Made by a program: the position numbers and the translations under genes. A model generated the notes under the pieces. It did no database searches, had not been told where the DNA came from, and saw nothing but the letters and a program-made list of their open reading frames with translations. Below are positions 11,822 through 28,814 of a stretch of DNA of 64,000 nucleotides, in pieces. Source of the DNA: Moorena sp. SIO3A2 (GTDB lineage Bacteria; Cyanobacteriota; Cyanobacteriia; Cyanobacteriales; Coleofasciculaceae); NCBI RefSeq assembly GCF_010672265.1, contig NZ_JAAHHC010000004.1:6161-70160 (forward strand), given 5' to 3'. Every line of letters begins with the position of its first letter. Position 1 is the first letter of the stretch.

Positions 11822-11893
11822 GCGGGTGTAATTCAGTGGTAGAATGTCAGCTTCCCAAGCTGAACGTCGTCGGTTCGAGTCCGATCACCCGCT
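11822..11893 (+). tRNA. tRNA-Gly (anticodon CCC)
   Basis: GCGGGTGTAATTCAGTGGTAGAAT...CTTCCCAAG anticodon loop...GGTTCGAGTCCGATCACCCGCT; cloverleaf nearly identical to bacterial tRNA-Gly(CCC). Confidence 0.9.
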
Positions 11894-12246: not shown

Positions 12247-12868
12247 TCTAACTCTAGGCGAATTTTGTTCAGAGATTTGTTAACTAATTTTATGACATGA
12301 AATCTATCTATTCCCAGATTAGCATTTGCGCTACGCGCACGCTACGCGAACGGAAAAACTTCCTTGACAACTTTCTGAAATCCACCCCACATATCTACAC
12401 TGACTTCTTTGATTTTTCCCCTGATTGCAATAGGTTGCTCCTTGAGTACTTCTATAATTTCTTCACTCTTATGAGAGTCAATTACTTATAATAAATAACT
12501 GTTATCAATATCACAAACAACGGTAACAAATTTTATTTTTCCTTTTGCTCGACTAAATTCATCTATATTTAACCGTTGTGGAGTTACCCAGTATTTTTTT
12601 TTGCTTATGGATTATTTTAAAAATTTTTTCGACTTTTTCTTGACTTAATTGTTCATTTTTGCTTACTTGTGCCACTGTTAATTCTTGAACTTTATTATAG
12701 ATATATTATTCATCCATTTTTGTATAATTACGACCCATTTATATAAAGCTTAAAGGTTCAGTTGAGTAGTTTTGACAGTGACAACAATAAAATTGACGAC
12801 GAGGCACTTGTAAGTATACTCCTTGCCCACATATAGCGGTTTTTAATCTAGTAAGGTACAAGTTTTTG

Positions 12869-14068: not shown

Positions 14069-14310
14069 GGAAATGCACTCCGCAGTGGTCTTACCTTCGG
14101 CGTAGCCGACGCTTCGCGAACAGAGATGGAGATTTGTTGGAAAAGCACCATATAATACCACGCGCACTGGATGGAAATAATTCAGACAAAAATCTCGAAT
14201 TATTACACCTACATTGCCATGATGCCAAACACGGAAGCAAAACCAACTCAAAAGAGTTAGATGAAAATCCGTTCTAGAGGAGCCAATGTCAAGGATTGTA
14301 CTGTAATGAT

Positions 14311-14345
14311 GAGCCGTATGATGCGAAAGTATCACGTACGTTTTT
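14311..14345 (+). ncRNA. Sequence resembling group II intron domain V (GAGCCGTATGATGCGAAAGTATCACGTACGTTTTT), probably a fragment of an intron with no maturase gene
   Basis: GAGC...GAAA tetraloop...ACGUACG pattern with an AC bulge, matching the domain V consensus GAGCCGUAUGCG-GAAA-CGCACGUACGG apart from one mismatch; lies in a non-coding region. Confidence 0.35.
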
Positions 14346-14543
14346 GAAGACGAGTCAGAGGTGACTCACTGGCTTAGTTTAATGAAGCCCGCGCTGTACC
14401 GTGCTTGTCAGCGTCGGGAGTATGTCACTAGAAAACCATTTCATCCCCGCTTTCCCTAAGGTATAGCAGAAGTCATTTGTCAGAAGTCAAACTCTTGCGC
14501 TTCTTGATGCAATAGCGAGTGGGGGAAACCCCCAAGACCGCTT

Positions 14544-18429: not shown

Positions 18430-18591
18430 ATCTCTGTCCTTTTATAAAAATCCCCCAAAGCCGAAAACCCCGTGTCTAATGACCGGGGATGAAGGCTCAC
18501 AGCGGCTTGACGCGCCTAGAAAAATATTTCAGGAAAATCCGGAATTTTAGTCTGGATGTTGTAAAATAAGGGAGTGAACAGTTTAGGTCCC

Positions 18592-18687
18592 AGACGAAAC
18601 CTTAGAATAGGGTCGCCTTTATGGTTTGTCGGCTATGGAAAAAGGGTTAAAACTGTTGTTATAAGGCGACCCTATTCTTACGGTAAC
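18592..18687 (-). mobile_element. Hairpin element H4 (reverse orientation) just upstream of tnpB; probable left-end subterminal palindrome of the IS200/IS605-family element
   Basis: GACGAAACCTTAG-[AATAGGGTCGCCTTTAT...ATAAGGCGACCCTATT]-CTTACGGTAAC; loop about 90% identical to the loop of H5. Confidence 0.55.
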
Positions 18688-18705
18688 TTTAAGAAGCTGA
18701 TGATC

Positions 18706-20046
18706 ATTTTAGAGTTCAAGGCGAAAGGAAAAAAACATCAATACTCTGGGATCAACGAGGCTATCCGGACAGTCCAGTTCATCCGTAATAGCTGCCTCAG
18801 GTATTGGATGGAAAATAAAGGGGTCAACAAATTTGACCTTAATAAGTACAGTGCAGTCCTTGCTAAAAACTTTCCTTTTGCTAATGAATTAAACTCTACT
18901 GCTCGTCAGTCTAGTGCTGAAAGAGCATGGTCATCAATTGTTCGATTCTTTGATAACTGCAAGAAAAAAGTACCTGGAAAGAAAGGTTTTCCTAAGTTCC
19001 AGAAAAACTGCCGCTCAGTGGAGTATAAACAGTCTGGATGGAAGTTATCCCCTGACAAGAAGTCAATCACCTTTAGTGATAAAAAGGGTATTGGGAAGCT
19101 TAAGCTTAAAGGTAGATGGGACTTGTGGCGCTTGGATAAAAAGGAAATAAAGCGAGTCCGTATAGTTCGCCGGGCTGATGGTTATTATGTCCAGTTTTGT
19201 GTTTCAGTTGATATCAAAGAGGAACTAGAGCCAAGTGGGACAGCTATCGGCTTGGATGTTGGACTAAAATATTTTTACACTGATTCCGCTGGAAAAACTG
19301 AACCAAATCCCTGCTTTTACAGAACGGGAGAAAAACGCCTTAAGTTCTACCAGCGTCGAGTTTCTCGCAAGAAGAAAGGCTCATCCAATCGAAATAAAGC
19401 AGTTAATAGACTAGGCAGACAGCACCTTAAGATAAGTAGGCAACGTGAAGAGAACGCCAAGAGACTGGGAACGAAGTTACCGTAAGAATAAAGAAGCCTT
19501 TATGGTTAGTCGGCTATGCATAAAAGGGTTAAATCTTTGTTATTAAGGCTTCTTTATTCTAAGGTTTCGTCTCCGGCGCGCTGCGTAATCTGTTCTAACG
19601 ATCTGGTCGCCTAGGTCGACTTAAGAGCCAAGAACCTAGTAAAAAATCACTGCCTCGCTAAGTCTATTAATGATGCAGGTTGGTATCAGTTTAGGAAATG
19701 GATGGAGCACTTTGGCACCAAGTTCGGAAAGGTAACAGTTGCAGTAAATCCTGCATATACCAGCCAAAACTGTTCCAATTGTGGCGAAGAAGTTAAAAAG
19801 TCCCTATCAACTAGGACTCATACGTGCAAGTGTGGTTGTCAGTTAGATAGAGACCACAACGCCGCAATAAACATCCTTAAGAAAGCCTTGGGTACGGTGG
19901 GGCACACCGGAACCTGGATCTTAAAATATCTAAACGCTTCAGGAGAATCGGCCTCTACTGTTCTTGGTTCCGGCCAGGTTCAGCAAGCTGGCTCGTTGAA
20001 TGAAGAATCCCCGCGTATGCGCGACCGGGGAGTGTCAAAAAACTAG
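18706..20046 (+). pseudogene. tnpB: IS200/IS605-family TnpB (OrfB, RNA-guided endonuclease family) gene, disrupted between 19486 and 19700 by a nested hairpin element and local rearrangement
   Basis: N-terminal part (to 19485) and C-terminal part (19702-20046, with the zinc finger CSNCG...CKCGC and a RuvC-III-like NAAINI motif) lie in different frames, separated by element H5 and an in-frame stop. Confidence 0.75.
19476..19574 (+). mobile_element. Hairpin element H5 inserted within tnpB (GTTACCGTAAG-[AATAAAGAAGCCTTTAT...ATTAAGGCTTCTTTATT]-CTAAGGTTTCGTCTCC)
   Basis: Direct reading; same flanks as H1, loop like H4. Confidence 0.55.
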
Positions 20047-24905: not shown

Positions 24906-25334
24906 AAGGCAGTTATAAGGACATACTGCTTAGTACTACTTGCCTCTACACCCTAGTTAACGTTATACTTATCTAAGGCTAAACATTTGGCTCAAGCCTA
25001 TAACAAAAAGTATTATATTTCTATGTCAGGGCAGCTCTATTTAGTTAACGTAACAAAAATTATTAAAATTTAATCCCTACTTATAGGCATCAACTGAGCC
25101 ATGCTCTTAGCAACTTAGACCATCGGAAATGAAAAATAAATTACTTAACTTGAAAAAAAGTAATATATGATACATTTTGATGGTAAGTTTAATGAAGATT
25201 TCAAAAACCATTAGCAATCTGTAAAGATTCGGCAAAGTCTATCAGAAGTGGTATGGAATTAGCGAAATTCCATACTATCTTCAATATATTCTCTATAAAA
25301 TTTTATTGGATTTGACCAAGTGAGGAGTCTACTC

Positions 25335-25667
25335 ATGACACAGGCGACCCTGAGTGCAAAATTAAGAATTATTCAACCTTCCGGTCATATTAACGCTTCT
25401 AATGCAATTGAGTTTAAAAGTCAGTTGACAGAAGCTGTGGTGGCTGCTGAGGATTCGGCTTTGTTGGTTGATATGCATCAGTTAGAGTCTCTCGACAGTG
25501 CTGGCTTAATGGCCTTAATTCATGGTCTGAAGCTAGCAAGAAGTCTAGAGAGGCGCTTTGGTCTTTGCTCCGTAGCTCCTTCAATTCGAATTATGCTGGA
25601 GCTAACTAAATTAGATGGGGTGTTTGAGATTTTTGACAGCCATGAGGCTTTTGCTACAGCCCTCTAG
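25335..25667 (+). CDS. STAS-domain protein (anti-sigma-factor antagonist, SpoIIAA-like)
   Basis: About 110 aa; pattern L.IIQPSGHI ... LVDMHQLESLDSAGLMALI typical of STAS/anti-anti-sigma proteins. Confidence 0.7.
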   Translation: MTQATLSAKLRIIQPSGHINASNAIEFKSQLTEAVVAAEDSALLVDMHQLESLDSAGLMALIHGLKLARSLERRFGLCSVAPSIRIMLELTKLDGVFEIFDSHEAFATAL

Positions 25668-25913: not shown

Positions 25914-28814
25914 ATGGCAATCACTGTAGAGGAAATATTAACACCAGACATCAACAGACCAGCCCGTTACTTAGGTAACGAGTTGGGAGCAGTCCATAAA
26001 CCTTGGGAAGAAGCTGAGGTACGCTGGGTATTGACTTATCCAGAAATCTATGAAGTGGGGGCTTCTAACTTAGGCCATATCATCCTCTACAATATATTGA
26101 ATTATCAACCTAGGCAATTATGCGATCGCGCCTATCTACCTGCCCCAGACTTGGCAGCTAAATTACGTTCCACTCAAACCCCTCTGTTTGCTGTCGAGAA
26201 TCGGCGACCTCTGAAAGATTTTGATATTATTGGCTTTAGCCTTAGCTATGAATTAGGGGCAACCAACATCTTGGAAATGTTGGATTTGGGAGGAATTCCC
26301 CTGACCTGGAAAGACCGTGCTCAGTTTGATATATCGGAAATACCCCTAATTTTTGCAGGTGGACAAACGGCGACATCGAATCCTGAACCCTATGCTGATT
26401 TCTTAGATTTTGTTGATCTTGGCGATGGGGAAGAATTGTTGCCAGAGATTGGCTTAGTAATCGAAGAAGGCAAAGCAGCTGGCTTAAGTCGAGAAGCGTT
26501 ACTCCTGGATTTGGCTCAGATACCAGGGGTGTATGTCCCCCAATTCTATGATATGACTGAGGATGGCTCAGTTAAACCCAACCGCCCTGATGTGCCGAAG
26601 CGGATTTTGCGGCGTGTGGCTACACCGATGCCTGCCTATGCTATTGGACTAGTACCCTATATCCAAACGGTTCATGACCGACTCAAGATCGAAGTGCGAC
26701 GGGGCTGTACTCGGGGTTGTCGCTTCTGCCAACCTGGGATGCTGACTCGACCAGCGCGGGATGTGGAACCAGAAAAAGTGGTGGAAGCTATTGAACAAGG
26801 GATGCGTGCTACAGGGTATAACGAGTTTTCCCTTCTATCCCTGAGTTGTTCGGATTACCTGGCTCTACCAGCGGTGGGGATGGAAATCAAAAATCGTCTT
26901 AAGGATCAGAATATTTCCTTGTCCCTACCGAGTCAGCGGGTAGACCGCTTTGATGAGAATATTGCCAATATCCTAGGGGGCAATCGGCAGAGTGGCTTGA
27001 CCTTTGCCCCAGAAGCAGGAACTCAGCGGATGCGGGATATTGTTAATAAGGGACTGACTAATGAAGAACTGCTCAGGGGAGTAAAGACGGCATTTGAGCA
27101 AGGCTGGGAGAAAGTCAAGCTCTATTTTATGATTGGTTTGCCCGGTGAAACGGATATGGATGTGTTGGGGATTGCGGAAACGGTGCGTTGGTTGCAGCAG
27201 GAGTGCCGTGCTAAAGGCAGAAAAACCATTAAGTTTAACATAACTGTTTCTAATTTTACCCCAAAACCTCACACCCCATTCCAGTGGCATTCCGTATCGA
27301 CTTCGGAGTTTGAACGCAAGCAGGAATTACTCAAACAAGTATTTGGTCAGATCAGGGGGGTGAAGGTTAATTACACCGATGTTCGGATTTCGGCCATGGA
27401 AGATTTCGTGGGACGGGGTGACAGACGCTTAAGTGCGGTGGTGCGCCGTGCTTGGGAATTGGGGGCAGGGATGGACTCCTGGATGGAAAGCTTGGATCGG
27501 GCATTTGCTGCTTGGGAAAATGCGATCGCTTCATCAGGTCTGACCTGGAAATATCGCCAAGTAGAAAATGGCGAATGGAACGTGATGGCGGGTGTAGAAG
27601 AGTTGCAAGTTGGAAGGTTGTTCGCGAAGCGTGGCCAAAAGGCCAAGGTTGAAAGTTCAGAGCAACCAGCTAACCTACAACCAGCTAACCTACAACCAAC
27701 TAACCGACAACCAACTAACCGACAACCAACTAACCTTCAACCAGCTAACCTTCAACCAACTAACCTTCAACCAACTAACCTTCAACCTTCTAACCTTCAA
27801 CCTTCTAACCTTCAACCTTCTAACCTTCAACCTTCTAACCTTCAACCAGCTAACCTTCAACCAGCTAACCTTCAACCGTCAACCCTTAACGCCCTTGATG
27901 CTCCCTTGCCTTGGGATCATATTGATACGGGAATTGATAAGAATTGGCTCAAGGAAGATTTACAACGGGCGTTAGATGCAGCAACGGTACCGGATTGTTC
28001 CTTTGATGGGTGTTCTCACTGTGGTGTGTGTGGGATTGATTTTGGTCATAATGTAGTGATTGAGCCGCCACAGATTCCGCAATTTGCTGGTCACTTTAAA
28101 CCCAATACTAATAAGGATCAGCGGCTGCGGGTTTGCTTTGGGAAGTTGGGGGATATGACCTTGTTGGGTCATCTGGATTTGGCAAGTCTGTTTGAGAGAG
28201 CAGTAAGACGGGCGTCACTGCCAATTCGATATAGTGGGGGGTTTCGGGCTAATGCTCGGATTATGATTGCTAATGCGTTGCCCTTGGGAGCGTCTAGCAG
28301 TGGGGAGATTGTGGAGTTTGAGTTAACTGAGAAAATGCCAGTTGAGGAGTTTAGGGAAAGGCTGGTGTCTCAGTTGCCTAAAGAGATTCCGGTGTATGGG
28401 GTTGAAGCAGTGGATTTGAAGGAACCTGCGGGAACTCAGCTGTTGGAGAGAGCTGAGTATTTGATTCGAGTTGAGGTAATATCAGAAGCGTCTTGGGAAG
28501 AGTGGCAGGGTTGGATTGAAGCAATCAAAGGTAGTAAGGAAATTTGGTGGGAGCGGTTTACGAAGTCGGGGAAGAAGCAGTGGGTGAATTTATGCGATCG
28601 CTTATTTGACTTCGAGGTGATCGAACCCCAAAAATCCAAAGATGGTGAAGAGGAGGTTGCGGAGTCTGGGGTGGTTTTGCGGTATGTGGGGAGTTGTTTG
28701 AATGATGGCACGATGTTGCGACCAGAGCACATTATTTATATGTTGGAGCAGGTGGCGCAGCGGGAGTTTCGTTTGTTGCATGTTCATCGGCAACGGTTGA
28801 TTCTGCGCAATTGA
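25914..28814 (+). CDS. Radical SAM protein fusion (TIGR03960-like B12-binding/radical SAM N-domain plus DUF2344/TIGR03936-like C-domain) with a repetitive interdomain linker
   Basis: 966-aa ORF; CxxxCxxC-type radical SAM cluster (RRGCTRGCRFCQ); C-terminal DUF2344-like region; linker made of PANLQ/PTNLQ/PSNLQ repeats. Confidence 0.8.
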   Translation: MAITVEEILTPDINRPARYLGNELGAVHKPWEEAEVRWVLTYPEIYEVGASNLGHIILYNILNYQPRQLCDRAYLPAPDLAAKLRSTQTPLFAVENRRPLKDFDIIGFSLSYELGATNILEMLDLGGIPLTWKDRAQFDISEIPLIFAGGQTATSNPEPYADFLDFVDLGDGEELLPEIGLVIEEGKAAGLSREALLLDLAQIPGVYVPQFYDMTEDGSVKPNRPDVPKRILRRVATPMPAYAIGLVPYIQTVHDRLKIEVRRGCTRGCRFCQPGMLTRPARDVEPEKVVEAIEQGMRATGYNEFSLLSLSCSDYLALPAVGMEIKNRLKDQNISLSLPSQRVDRFDENIANILGGNRQSGLTFAPEAGTQRMRDIVNKGLTNEELLRGVKTAFEQGWEKVKLYFMIGLPGETDMDVLGIAETVRWLQQECRAKGRKTIKFNITVSNFTPKPHTPFQWHSVSTSEFERKQELLKQVFGQIRGVKVNYTDVRISAMEDFVGRGDRRLSAVVRRAWELGAGMDSWMESLDRAFAAWENAIASSGLTWKYRQVENGEWNVMAGVEELQVGRLFAKRGQKAKVESSEQPANLQPANLQPTNRQPTNRQPTNLQPANLQPTNLQPTNLQPSNLQPSNLQPSNLQPSNLQPANLQPANLQPSTLNALDAPLPWDHIDTGIDKNWLKEDLQRALDAATVPDCSFDGCSHCGVCGIDFGHNVVIEPPQIPQFAGHFKPNTNKDQRLRVCFGKLGDMTLLGHLDLASLFERAVRRASLPIRYSGGFRANARIMIANALPLGASSSGEIVEFELTEKMPVEEFRERLVSQLPKEIPVYGVEAVDLKEPAGTQLLERAEYLIRVEVISEASWEEWQGWIEAIKGSKEIWWERFTKSGKKQWVNLCDRLFDFEVIEPQKSKDGEEEVAESGVVLRYVGSCLNDGTMLRPEHIIYMLEQVAQREFRLLHVHRQRLILRN
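27665..27885. repeat. 15-nt tandem repeat (CCAGCTAACCTACAA and variants), about 15 copies, in frame within the radical SAM fusion CDS
   Basis: Direct reading; encodes (P[ATS]N[LR]Q)n. Confidence 0.9.

Follow-up and report, generated by a model that had tools for sequence, protein, structure and literature searches.

A stretch of DNA from the cyanobacterium Moorena sp. SIO3A2 (contig NZ_JAAHHC010000004.1, positions 6,161–70,160 of the forward strand; the whole 64-kb stretch is referred to as the window) contains a gene encoding a radical S-adenosylmethionine (SAM) fusion protein of 966 amino acids, within which a 15-nucleotide unit, read as the pentapeptide QPxNL, is repeated in tandem. The question raised by this locus is how such a tract came to lie within a conserved protein and whether the protein makes any use of it. 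A reading made from the letters of this DNA without database searches (hereafter the sequence-only reading) had taken the tract to be a slippage-expandable flexible linker that arose at the junction between two fused proteins. The analysis reported here points, with a probability of roughly 0.75, to tolerated, slippage-prone selfish DNA in a permissive loop, the tract being one copy of a palindromic repeat family that is dispersed in Moorena.

Tandem Repeats Finder identified one strong array in the region (27663–27877; period 15, 14.3 copies, 95% matches, no indels, score 297), and together with a table of the individual units this placed the tract within 2 nt of the position and copy number read previously (27665–27885, about 15 copies; Table 1). 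The order of the encoded units is QPANL (twice), QPTNR (twice), QPTNL, QPANL, QPTNL (twice), QPSNL (four times), QPANL (twice) and a final, degenerate QPSTL. As had been read from the sequence, the A, T and S variants differ at the first codon position (GCT, ACT or TCT); in the S units the preceding proline codon is also altered from CCA to CCT, and the leucine codon differs in four units, being CTA in two of them and CGA, encoding arginine, in the other two. The array is in frame with the open reading frame (ORF) of the host gene and contains no stop codons, as expected of a coding minisatellite. Allowing at most one mismatch, CAACCNNCTAACCTT had 12 matches in the window, every one inside the tract, against 0.08 in shuffled sequences. 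The unit itself can be divided into 7 and 8 nt (CAACCTT and CTAACCTT). Written as types along the array, the units run aabbcdcceeeeddf, with seven adjacent identical pairs against 1.87 expected (P=0.0006). High identity between units and clustering of identical ones are characteristic of a variable number of tandem repeats (VNTR) locus, and on the sequence the clustering is the signature that local duplication by slippage or unequal exchange would leave. Phase variation by frameshift was considered and rejected, as a 15-nt unit is unable to shift the frame.

The host protein contains the Pfam domains Radical_SAM_N2, Radical_SAM and DUF2344, is 100% identical to a record named 'MULTISPECIES [Moorena]' and scored above both curated NCBIfam cut-offs (TIGR03960, 597.6 bits against 462.3; TIGR03936, 183.7 bits against 71.9). 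The match to TIGR03960 was split around the tract, profile positions 3–551 corresponding to residues 8–552 and positions 554–600 to residues 661–708; because the matches resume after the tract, the tract interrupts the radical SAM family model. The fusion junction lies about 50 residues further downstream, at residues 709–736, and the tract is thus not located precisely between the two halves, as the sequence-only reading had placed it. That reading had been right that the halves are often separate elsewhere, many more distant DUF2344 relatives being stand-alone proteins of 210–260 amino acids. In an alignment of 74 cyanobacterial sequences, the loop holding the tract was bounded by invariant W555/N556 and L665/P666/W667, and the TIGR03960 tail that follows contained invariant cysteines at positions 695, 700, 703 and 706, which we infer might be ligands of an auxiliary Fe-S cluster. 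The length of the loop ranged from 6 to 111 amino acids across 120 cyanobacterial orthologues; since six residues suffice to close it, the tract is probably a surface-loop excursion and not an interdomain spacer. DUF2344, TIGR03960 and TIGR03936 were mentioned only incidentally in the literature searched, with no function described, and by sequence the sole match of the host protein in the PDB was a distant radical SAM core (9ccb, residues 257–416). A gene encoding a STAS-domain protein (25320–25667, +) is located directly upstream of the fusion gene, an arrangement found in all loci examined (L001–L003, L120 and L121), distant cyanobacteria included, and this synteny might hint at the context of the enzyme. 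The octamer HIP1 (GCGATCGC), the highly iterated palindrome of cyanobacteria, occurs within the gene at 27522–27529, about 130 nt upstream of the array.

Orthologues of the gene in Moorena carry tracts of different lengths, the window having 15 units, SIO1G6 16, M. producens JHB 14 and M. producens PAL-8-15-08-1 (PAL) 2; several orthologues from metagenome-assembled genomes (MAGs) have approximately 6–10, and the loop of SIO4A1 has a period of 39 nt (13 amino acids). In four Moorena alleles the loop measured 66, 279, 318 or 333 nt. The flanks, compared with those of PAL, JHB and SIO4A1 over 1671 nt upstream and 912 nt downstream, were 96–98% identical at the DNA level and contained no indels, such that copy number differs among close relatives between conserved flanks, as in a VNTR locus. 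About 12 distinct loop alleles were recognised at the protein level, and variation of the tract was visible from approximately 1% protein divergence upward. The expectation that the tract would be expandable by slippage and variable in copy number was supported by the range of 2–16 units among Moorena orthologues and by the clustering of identical units; the orthologue alignment that had been proposed as a check, in which an identical tract throughout would have spoken for a conserved structural role, showed tracts that are not identical. The claim that the number varies between strains stands at the level of lineages (2, 14, 15 and 16 units) and does not extend to two fetched loci with a gene 100% identical to that of the window, as these share its tract.

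Differences of this kind could in principle arise in assembly, the length of the array being wrong or the tract not forming part of the mature protein; tandem repeats collapse easily in the short-read MAG assemblies from which several of the alleles were taken. We regard this explanation as hardly credible. The 966-amino-acid protein including the tract is recorded on five contigs and the two fetched loci, from different assemblies, share identical DNA, which excludes a one-off error of assembly. In addition, PAL and JHB, both on contigs of more than 9.6 Mb that are probably whole chromosomes, differ from each other (2 and 14 units), and the protein sequence is conserved, in one and the same frame, before and after the tract.

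The array is preceded by inverted sequence, with which it forms a palindromic structure like that of the Rickettsia palindromic elements (RPE). The left arm is in two parts, the first of which forms inverted-repeat pairs with array units (pairs I1–I12, 19–20 nt, 70–84% complementary), while the second, of 13 nt, is 92% complementary to AACCTTCAACCTT of the array; a 24-nt hairpin element separates the two parts. Read as protein, the module of the window is LQVGRL-FAKRGQKA-KVESSE-(QPxNL)15. Equivalent left arms (LKVxxL...) were found before arrays in RecJ, AcrB, PutA, SMC and citramalate synthase, the module reading ...LHVGRLKVVRE-(QPxNL)17 in RecJ, ...LKVDPL-FAKRGQLA-KVDKL...KVESWQN-(NLQPN)n in AcrB and (ELKVGRLNVDN)n-PYGNAKGE-(QPANL)n in citramalate synthase. 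In many copies, the arms meet at a perfect palindrome, AAGGTTG-TTCGCGAA-CAACCTT. The 15-nt unit and the 24-nt elements both correspond to whole codons, five and eight, respectively.

The 24-nt element is absent from the JHB and PAL alleles and present in that of SIO4A1, which has five extra forward copies inside its array, read GQKATLRE. Its tail, ACGCTACGCGAA, occurs seven times in the window against 0.05 expected, and across all DNA loci analysed a perfect hairpin preceded 193 of 229 tails, with stems that covary (GGCC, CGGC/GCCG, GACC/GGTC, TGGC/GCCA and CTCC/GGAG). Approximately 100 of the 127 type-A hairpin elements (23–24 nt) are inserted exactly between AACCTT and CAAC, and the corresponding junction is taken by a second type of 24 nt, CCCTACNNGAACGCCAAAGGCGAA (PYGNAKGE). 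The six other copies in the window, each consisting of a variable stem-loop and the tail, are at 12339, 14109, 15583, 24796 (−), 36105 and 55809 (−). Of the seven copies, these six are located outside the listed ORFs of at least 100 amino acids, two of them (36105 and 55809) just past the ends of genes in the manner of repetitive extragenic palindromic (REP) sequences.

An inverted structure of this kind raises the possibility that the element acts as RNA, the arms forming a long mRNA hairpin that affects stability, processing or translational pausing, with the peptide as a by-product. Folding of 27590–27900 gave −57.8 kcal/mol against −42.3±3.9 for shuffled sequences (z=−4.05), the left arm pairing with QPSNL units, and the location of most hairpin copies of the window outside the listed ORFs, two of them past gene ends like REP sequences, would also suit such a role. 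However, any palindromic repeat yields a z-score of this kind, the PAL allele has no left arm and translating ribosomes would melt the stem. At gathering scores Rfam found no family in the tract region and, elsewhere in the window, nothing but a tRNA and a fragment of a group II intron. We therefore consider a function at the RNA level highly improbable.

The alleles of other strains bear on the history of the module. In PAL the left arm itself is missing, and the unit that comes first matches exactly, as a reverse complement, the left arm found in other strains. A more distant MAG (locus L121), the flanks of which are 70–78% identical, has a left arm and 3–4 units of the types CAAACCTG/CAACCTG; because L121 already has these parts, the sequences favour a secondary contraction in PAL over an ancestral state. 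Other cyanobacteria fill the loop with other repeats. In one orthologue (L120, 1162–3915), about 20 tandem GGAGTCA heptamers (read ESGVRSQ) are followed by four of AAATCCA, and these heptamer arrays are in frame solely because their total length is divisible by three; in Symploca orthologues the same loop contains repeats of the AEGSRQQ type. Given these different fillings, the loop is a general soft spot that takes up the repeat family of any lineage.

The distribution of the unit beyond this gene was determined by an exact-pattern scan with CTAACCTTCAACCNNCTAACCTT that covered one genome per species and for which per-genome counts are lower bounds. More than 116 stretches were found, nearly all in Moorena and both intergenic and coding. 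The 8-kb blocks with matches numbered at least 26 for M. bouillonii PNG and at least 30 for M. producens 3L; there were many in SIO3I8, SIO3H5 and SS36440bin_2 and a few in Allocoleopsis, Stenomitos, Waterburya and other MAGs. The element is thus present at many unrelated loci, as RPE are, and forms lineage-specific dispersed arrays, as do the short tandemly repeated repetitive (STRR) sequences of cyanobacteria. The literature searched contained no description of a 15-nt repeat family in Moorena.

Among the matches listed, 108 arrays had at least three units; 37 of these were inside stop-free ORFs of at least 300 amino acids and represented 20 distinct host genes. According to Pfam, the hosts include SMC (14 units), Mfd/TRCF, RecJ (17 units), PutA, a CobN/Mg-chelatase family protein and PurL, as well as citramalate synthase, AnmK, AcrB, two CheA-like kinases, NFACT, a GFO/IDH/MocA oxidoreductase and a GH38 mannosidase. 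Of the six frames in which the unit could be read, only three, QPxNL, NLLTF and KVRRL, are free of stops, and QPxNL was the one used in 17 of the 20 hosts among the matches listed (P=2.8e-6), a recurrent peptide carried in frame by unrelated housekeeping genes, as is seen with RPE. Copy number differed between genomes in all 10 host genes that were sampled at least twice. The Moorena alleles of citramalate synthase, for example, encode 555–679 amino acids with a loop of 20–144. The same loop of citramalate synthase (L119, proteins P0271–P0314) contains a minimal palindrome (ALKVGRLNVEGSEQPANLQP) in several genera (Allocoleopsis, Microcoleus, Coleofasciculaceae), which in Moorena has grown to up to 144 amino acids, and NSQSPIP heptad repeats are found there instead in Symploca. 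In a histidine-kinase ORF of M. bouillonii PNG (L022, 5245–7236), a truncated HATPase_c match is followed immediately by 14 units, here read in the hydrophobic frame FNLxT; this may be a disrupted or frameshifted gene.

An origin of the tract at the fusion junction, as proposed in the sequence-only reading, is contradicted by these data, since the unit, with its accessory parts, recurs at over 116 places, nearly all in Moorena genomes, among them 20 host genes unrelated to one another and many intergenic sites. An independent origin of the unit at each locus was likewise rejected, since unrelated genes share the unit, the left arm, the central palindrome and the 24-nt element at the same junction.

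The same distribution bears on whether the tract is a purpose-built flexible linker, that is, a spacer selected for distance or freedom of movement between the radical SAM and C-terminal parts, with its length tuned by slippage. The tract is always in frame, a variable low-complexity segment is present at this position in all cyanobacterial orthologues and the Pro/Gln/Asn-rich peptide is predicted to be coil, all of which a linker would explain. Against it, the site lies within the TIGR03960 model and away from the junction, two units suffice in M. producens PAL and six residues in other genera, the module includes a hairpin element of 24 nt and the same DNA occurs in unrelated genes and between genes. 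A linker in this sense is quite unlikely, and the linker function suggested earlier is doubtful when other cyanobacteria close the loop with so few residues.

The peptide itself might nevertheless form a structure. The register [A/T/S]-N-L-Q-P coincides with the consensus A(D/N)LXX of pentapeptide-repeat proteins, as seen in alignment to members of known structure in the PDB, and the 15 units could then build about 3.75 coils of a right-handed quadrilateral beta-helix of the Rfr type, a rigid module serving, for example, in partner binding or DNA mimicry. In phmmer searches, residues 584–659 aligned to designed and natural pentapeptide-repeat solenoids (4yei, 2e-24 with a fragment as query; Np275/276, 2j8k, 4e-12; Rfr23, 2o6w; Alr5209, 6omx), the NCBIfam models for HetL and Alr5209 gave weak matches (about 1e-6 to 1e-7), and the bias of coding copies to the QPxNL frame is in line with such a fold. 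However, E-values of repeat against repeat are inflated, the tract is below the Pfam gathering cut-offs (Pentapeptide_4, PF13599, 19.4 against 38 bits; Pentapeptide, PF00805, 12.7 against 20.2 bits) and keratin and extensin pentapeptide families scored about equally on it. Proline stands at position i+2 of every unit, copy number is as low as 2 in PAL, and in other alleles 8-residue segments between units break the 5-residue register, as in the 13-residue period of SIO4A1. In a full-length AlphaFold2 model based on the 74-sequence alignment, the tract was coil without strands at a predicted local distance difference test score (pLDDT) of 22–26, in a model that was poor as a whole (mean pLDDT 53, predicted template modelling score 0.35); the alignment was sufficient in depth and insufficient in diversity, and the place of the loop in three dimensions cannot be derived from it. 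A single-sequence AlphaFold2 model of the fragment contained no secondary structure and had no Foldseek match in the PDB. As weak evidence, the models thus speak against a beta-helix, which we consider very unlikely, and the tract is most likely a disordered loop on the surface of the protein. A canonical pentapeptide-repeat protein of 293 amino acids (PF00805, 2e-58) is encoded immediately downstream of the host gene (29158–30039, −), above the cut-offs that the QPxNL tract misses.

Tolerated selfish DNA in a permissive loop accounts best for these observations, and several points weigh against it. Errors are possible in the copy numbers that come from short-read MAG assemblies, and PAL and JHB are the only alleles on contigs of more than 9.6 Mb. 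The retention of the tract in the mature protein and its harmlessness to function are putative. The structural evidence is weak, as single-sequence prediction is unable to rule out a fold, and the bias to the QPxNL frame together with the fit to the pentapeptide consensus could point to a structure or role of the peptide. No transposase was identified for the module, and no whole-genome search aimed at REP-associated tyrosine transposases (RAYT) was made.

On this reading, the tract belongs to the dispersed family, of which related filamentous cyanobacteria also carry a few copies, and is the right arm, in expanded form, of a composite palindromic module whose repeats can be translated. Such a module comprises a left part of a few inverted units (read LKVxxL), a centre formed by the palindrome (TTCGCGAA), the 24-nt hairpin element or both, and a right part of direct 15-nt units (read QPxNL); because every part is a multiple of 3 nt, it can sit in a gene without breaking the frame. 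In the radical SAM gene it occupies a hypervariable loop in the C-terminal part of the TIGR03960 region, and it probably entered this loop before the radiation of Moorena, since L121 already carries it. The arms would expand and contract by slipped-strand mispairing or by unequal recombination or exchange, and the hairpin potential of the two arms may increase their instability. Insertions read in the NLLTF frame, which is hydrophobic, or in the strongly basic frame KVRRL would be removed by selection, as would those at intolerant sites of proteins, and the surviving Gln/Pro/Asn-rich peptide would be tolerated rather than required, a neutral, disordered and exposed segment. A further-reaching proposal is that the composite modules of Moorena and related organisms are a still-active system that keeps the reading frame, in which 24-nt hairpins insert at one junction between 15-nt units, palindromes invade loops of essential genes and QPxNL minisatellites feed the pentapeptide-repeat families of cyanobacteria; this we consider unlikely.

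The known system that comes closest in behaviour is that of the RPE, selfish DNA located in frame in many unrelated genes (Ogata 2000, 2002, as reviewed in PMC10969869). RPE resemble the Moorena module in being palindromic, in lying in frame in unrelated housekeeping genes at sites apparently tolerated by the fold, in encoding a recurrent peptide and in occurring between genes as well, and they are elements of fixed length, approximately 100–150 bp, in an alpha-proteobacterial parasite (PMC10969869). The Moorena module differs in that it consists of 15-nt tandem units and 24-nt hairpins, varies in length between strains and belongs to a free-living cyanobacterium with a large genome. The resemblance is one of analogy, and neither a sequence relationship nor membership of the same family is implied.

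STRR arrays have been described mainly from heterocystous genera and mainly between genes. The small dispersed repeats (SDR) of Nostoc, of 21–27 nt, are said to have been described by Elhai and colleagues in 2008 as often embedded in tandem heptameric sequences. Like STRR and long simple sequence repeat (SSR) heptamer arrays, the Moorena arrays consist of short tandem units, are dispersed and lineage-specific and are useful for strain fingerprinting (PMC4679880). Unlike them, the unit is of 15 nt and not a heptanucleotide, arrays of any length are neutral to the frame and 37 of the 108 are coding. Among the SDR (Elhai et al., 2008, Genome Res 18:1484, cited in PMC4390886), SDR5 is inserted precisely within HIP1 (PMC4390886). 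The 24-nt element can be likened to SDR, by description only, in its size, its covarying stems and its fixed junction inside tandem repeats; it differs from those of Nostoc in its host genus and in being carried in frame inside genes as well. With the GTAG-tagged REP sequences (Di Nocera et al., 2013; PMC3733652), whose published cyanobacterial families are GTAG-12, -15 and -16, the element has in common, again by description, a short stem-loop rich in GC and an unpaired tail that is conserved, and most of its copies have GTAG on the other strand (GTTCGCGTAGCGT); the copy in the radical SAM gene has GAAG instead of GTAG. With the pentapeptide-repeat proteins (PF00805; the Rfr fold of Np275/276, Rfr23 and HetL), finally, the tract shares a 5-residue period and the order small residue-Asn-Leu; it is set apart from them by a proline in every unit, scores below gathering, the lack of a predicted beta-helix and its nature as a loop insertion rather than a domain.

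Table 1. Features of the radical SAM fusion gene and its repeat module, in positions of the window (aa, amino acid residues of the host protein)
Feature	Position	Strand	Sequence, coding and basis
Host gene, TIGR03960 (B12-binding-type radical SAM) and TIGR03936/DUF2344 fusion	25914–28814	+	966 aa; ORF, translation, Pfam, NCBIfam
Left inverted arm, part 1	27602–27620	+	GTTGCAAGTTGGAAGGTTG, encodes LQVGRL; reverse-complement copy of the repeat unit
24-nt hairpin element	27621–27644	−	minus strand reads GGCCTTTTGGCCACGCTTCGCGAA; plus strand encodes FAKRGQKA in frame, 8 codons
Left inverted arm, part 2	27645–27657	+	AAGGTTGAAAGTT, within KVESS; inverted-repeat pairs I13–I16
Spacer between left arm part 2 and array	27658–27662		CAGAG, 5 nt
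Right arm (tandem array)	27663–27887	+	14 near-identical 15-nt units and 1 degenerate unit; encodes (QP[A/T/S]N[L/R])14-QPSTL, aa 584–658
TIGR03960 C-terminal tail, downstream of array	27894–28037	+	aa 661–708; NCBIfam profile positions 554–600
True junction of the two family models	28038–28121	+	aa 709–736; gap between TIGR03960 end and TIGR03936 start
TIGR03936/DUF2344 domain	28122–28799	+	aa 737–962; Pfam, NCBIfam

Also just downstream of the radical SAM gene, an ORF of 879 amino acids (30687–33326, +) with the domains Vault, Vault_2, Vault_3, Vault_4 and MVP_shoulder encodes a bacterial homologue of the eukaryotic major vault protein. The vault ORF is also located beside the orthologue in SIO4A1 (L003), and a fragment of it is nearby in JHB (L002). 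Signs of other mobile DNA in the window are an ORF resembling IS605 OrfB/TnpB (18574–19485, +) and the two Rfam matches, the group II intron fragment (14309–14383, +; RF00029, 46.9 bits) and the tRNA (11822–11893, +).

To take the tract in the radical SAM gene for a designed linker, or for a mark left by the domain fusion, would be mistaken; it is an insertion in a tolerant loop of the radical SAM part. Taken alone it is ordinary, and its wider context is a genus-wide palindromic repeat that codes for protein in 20 or more genes, of which many have housekeeping roles. Moorena is a genus studied for its natural products, and most descriptions of protein-coding palindromes so far concern Rickettsia. 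Proteins are made longer by the modules, which can lead to errors in alignment, orthology assignment and domain annotation. The modules are also ready multi-locus VNTR markers for strain typing, and their positions map naturally the sites at which large insertions are tolerated by essential enzymes. The exact placement of 24-nt hairpins relative to the tandem units offers a way to study the spread of very small repeats. If the modules were indeed a still-active system, selfish minisatellites could be a raw material for the unusually large pentapeptide-repeat families of cyanobacteria.

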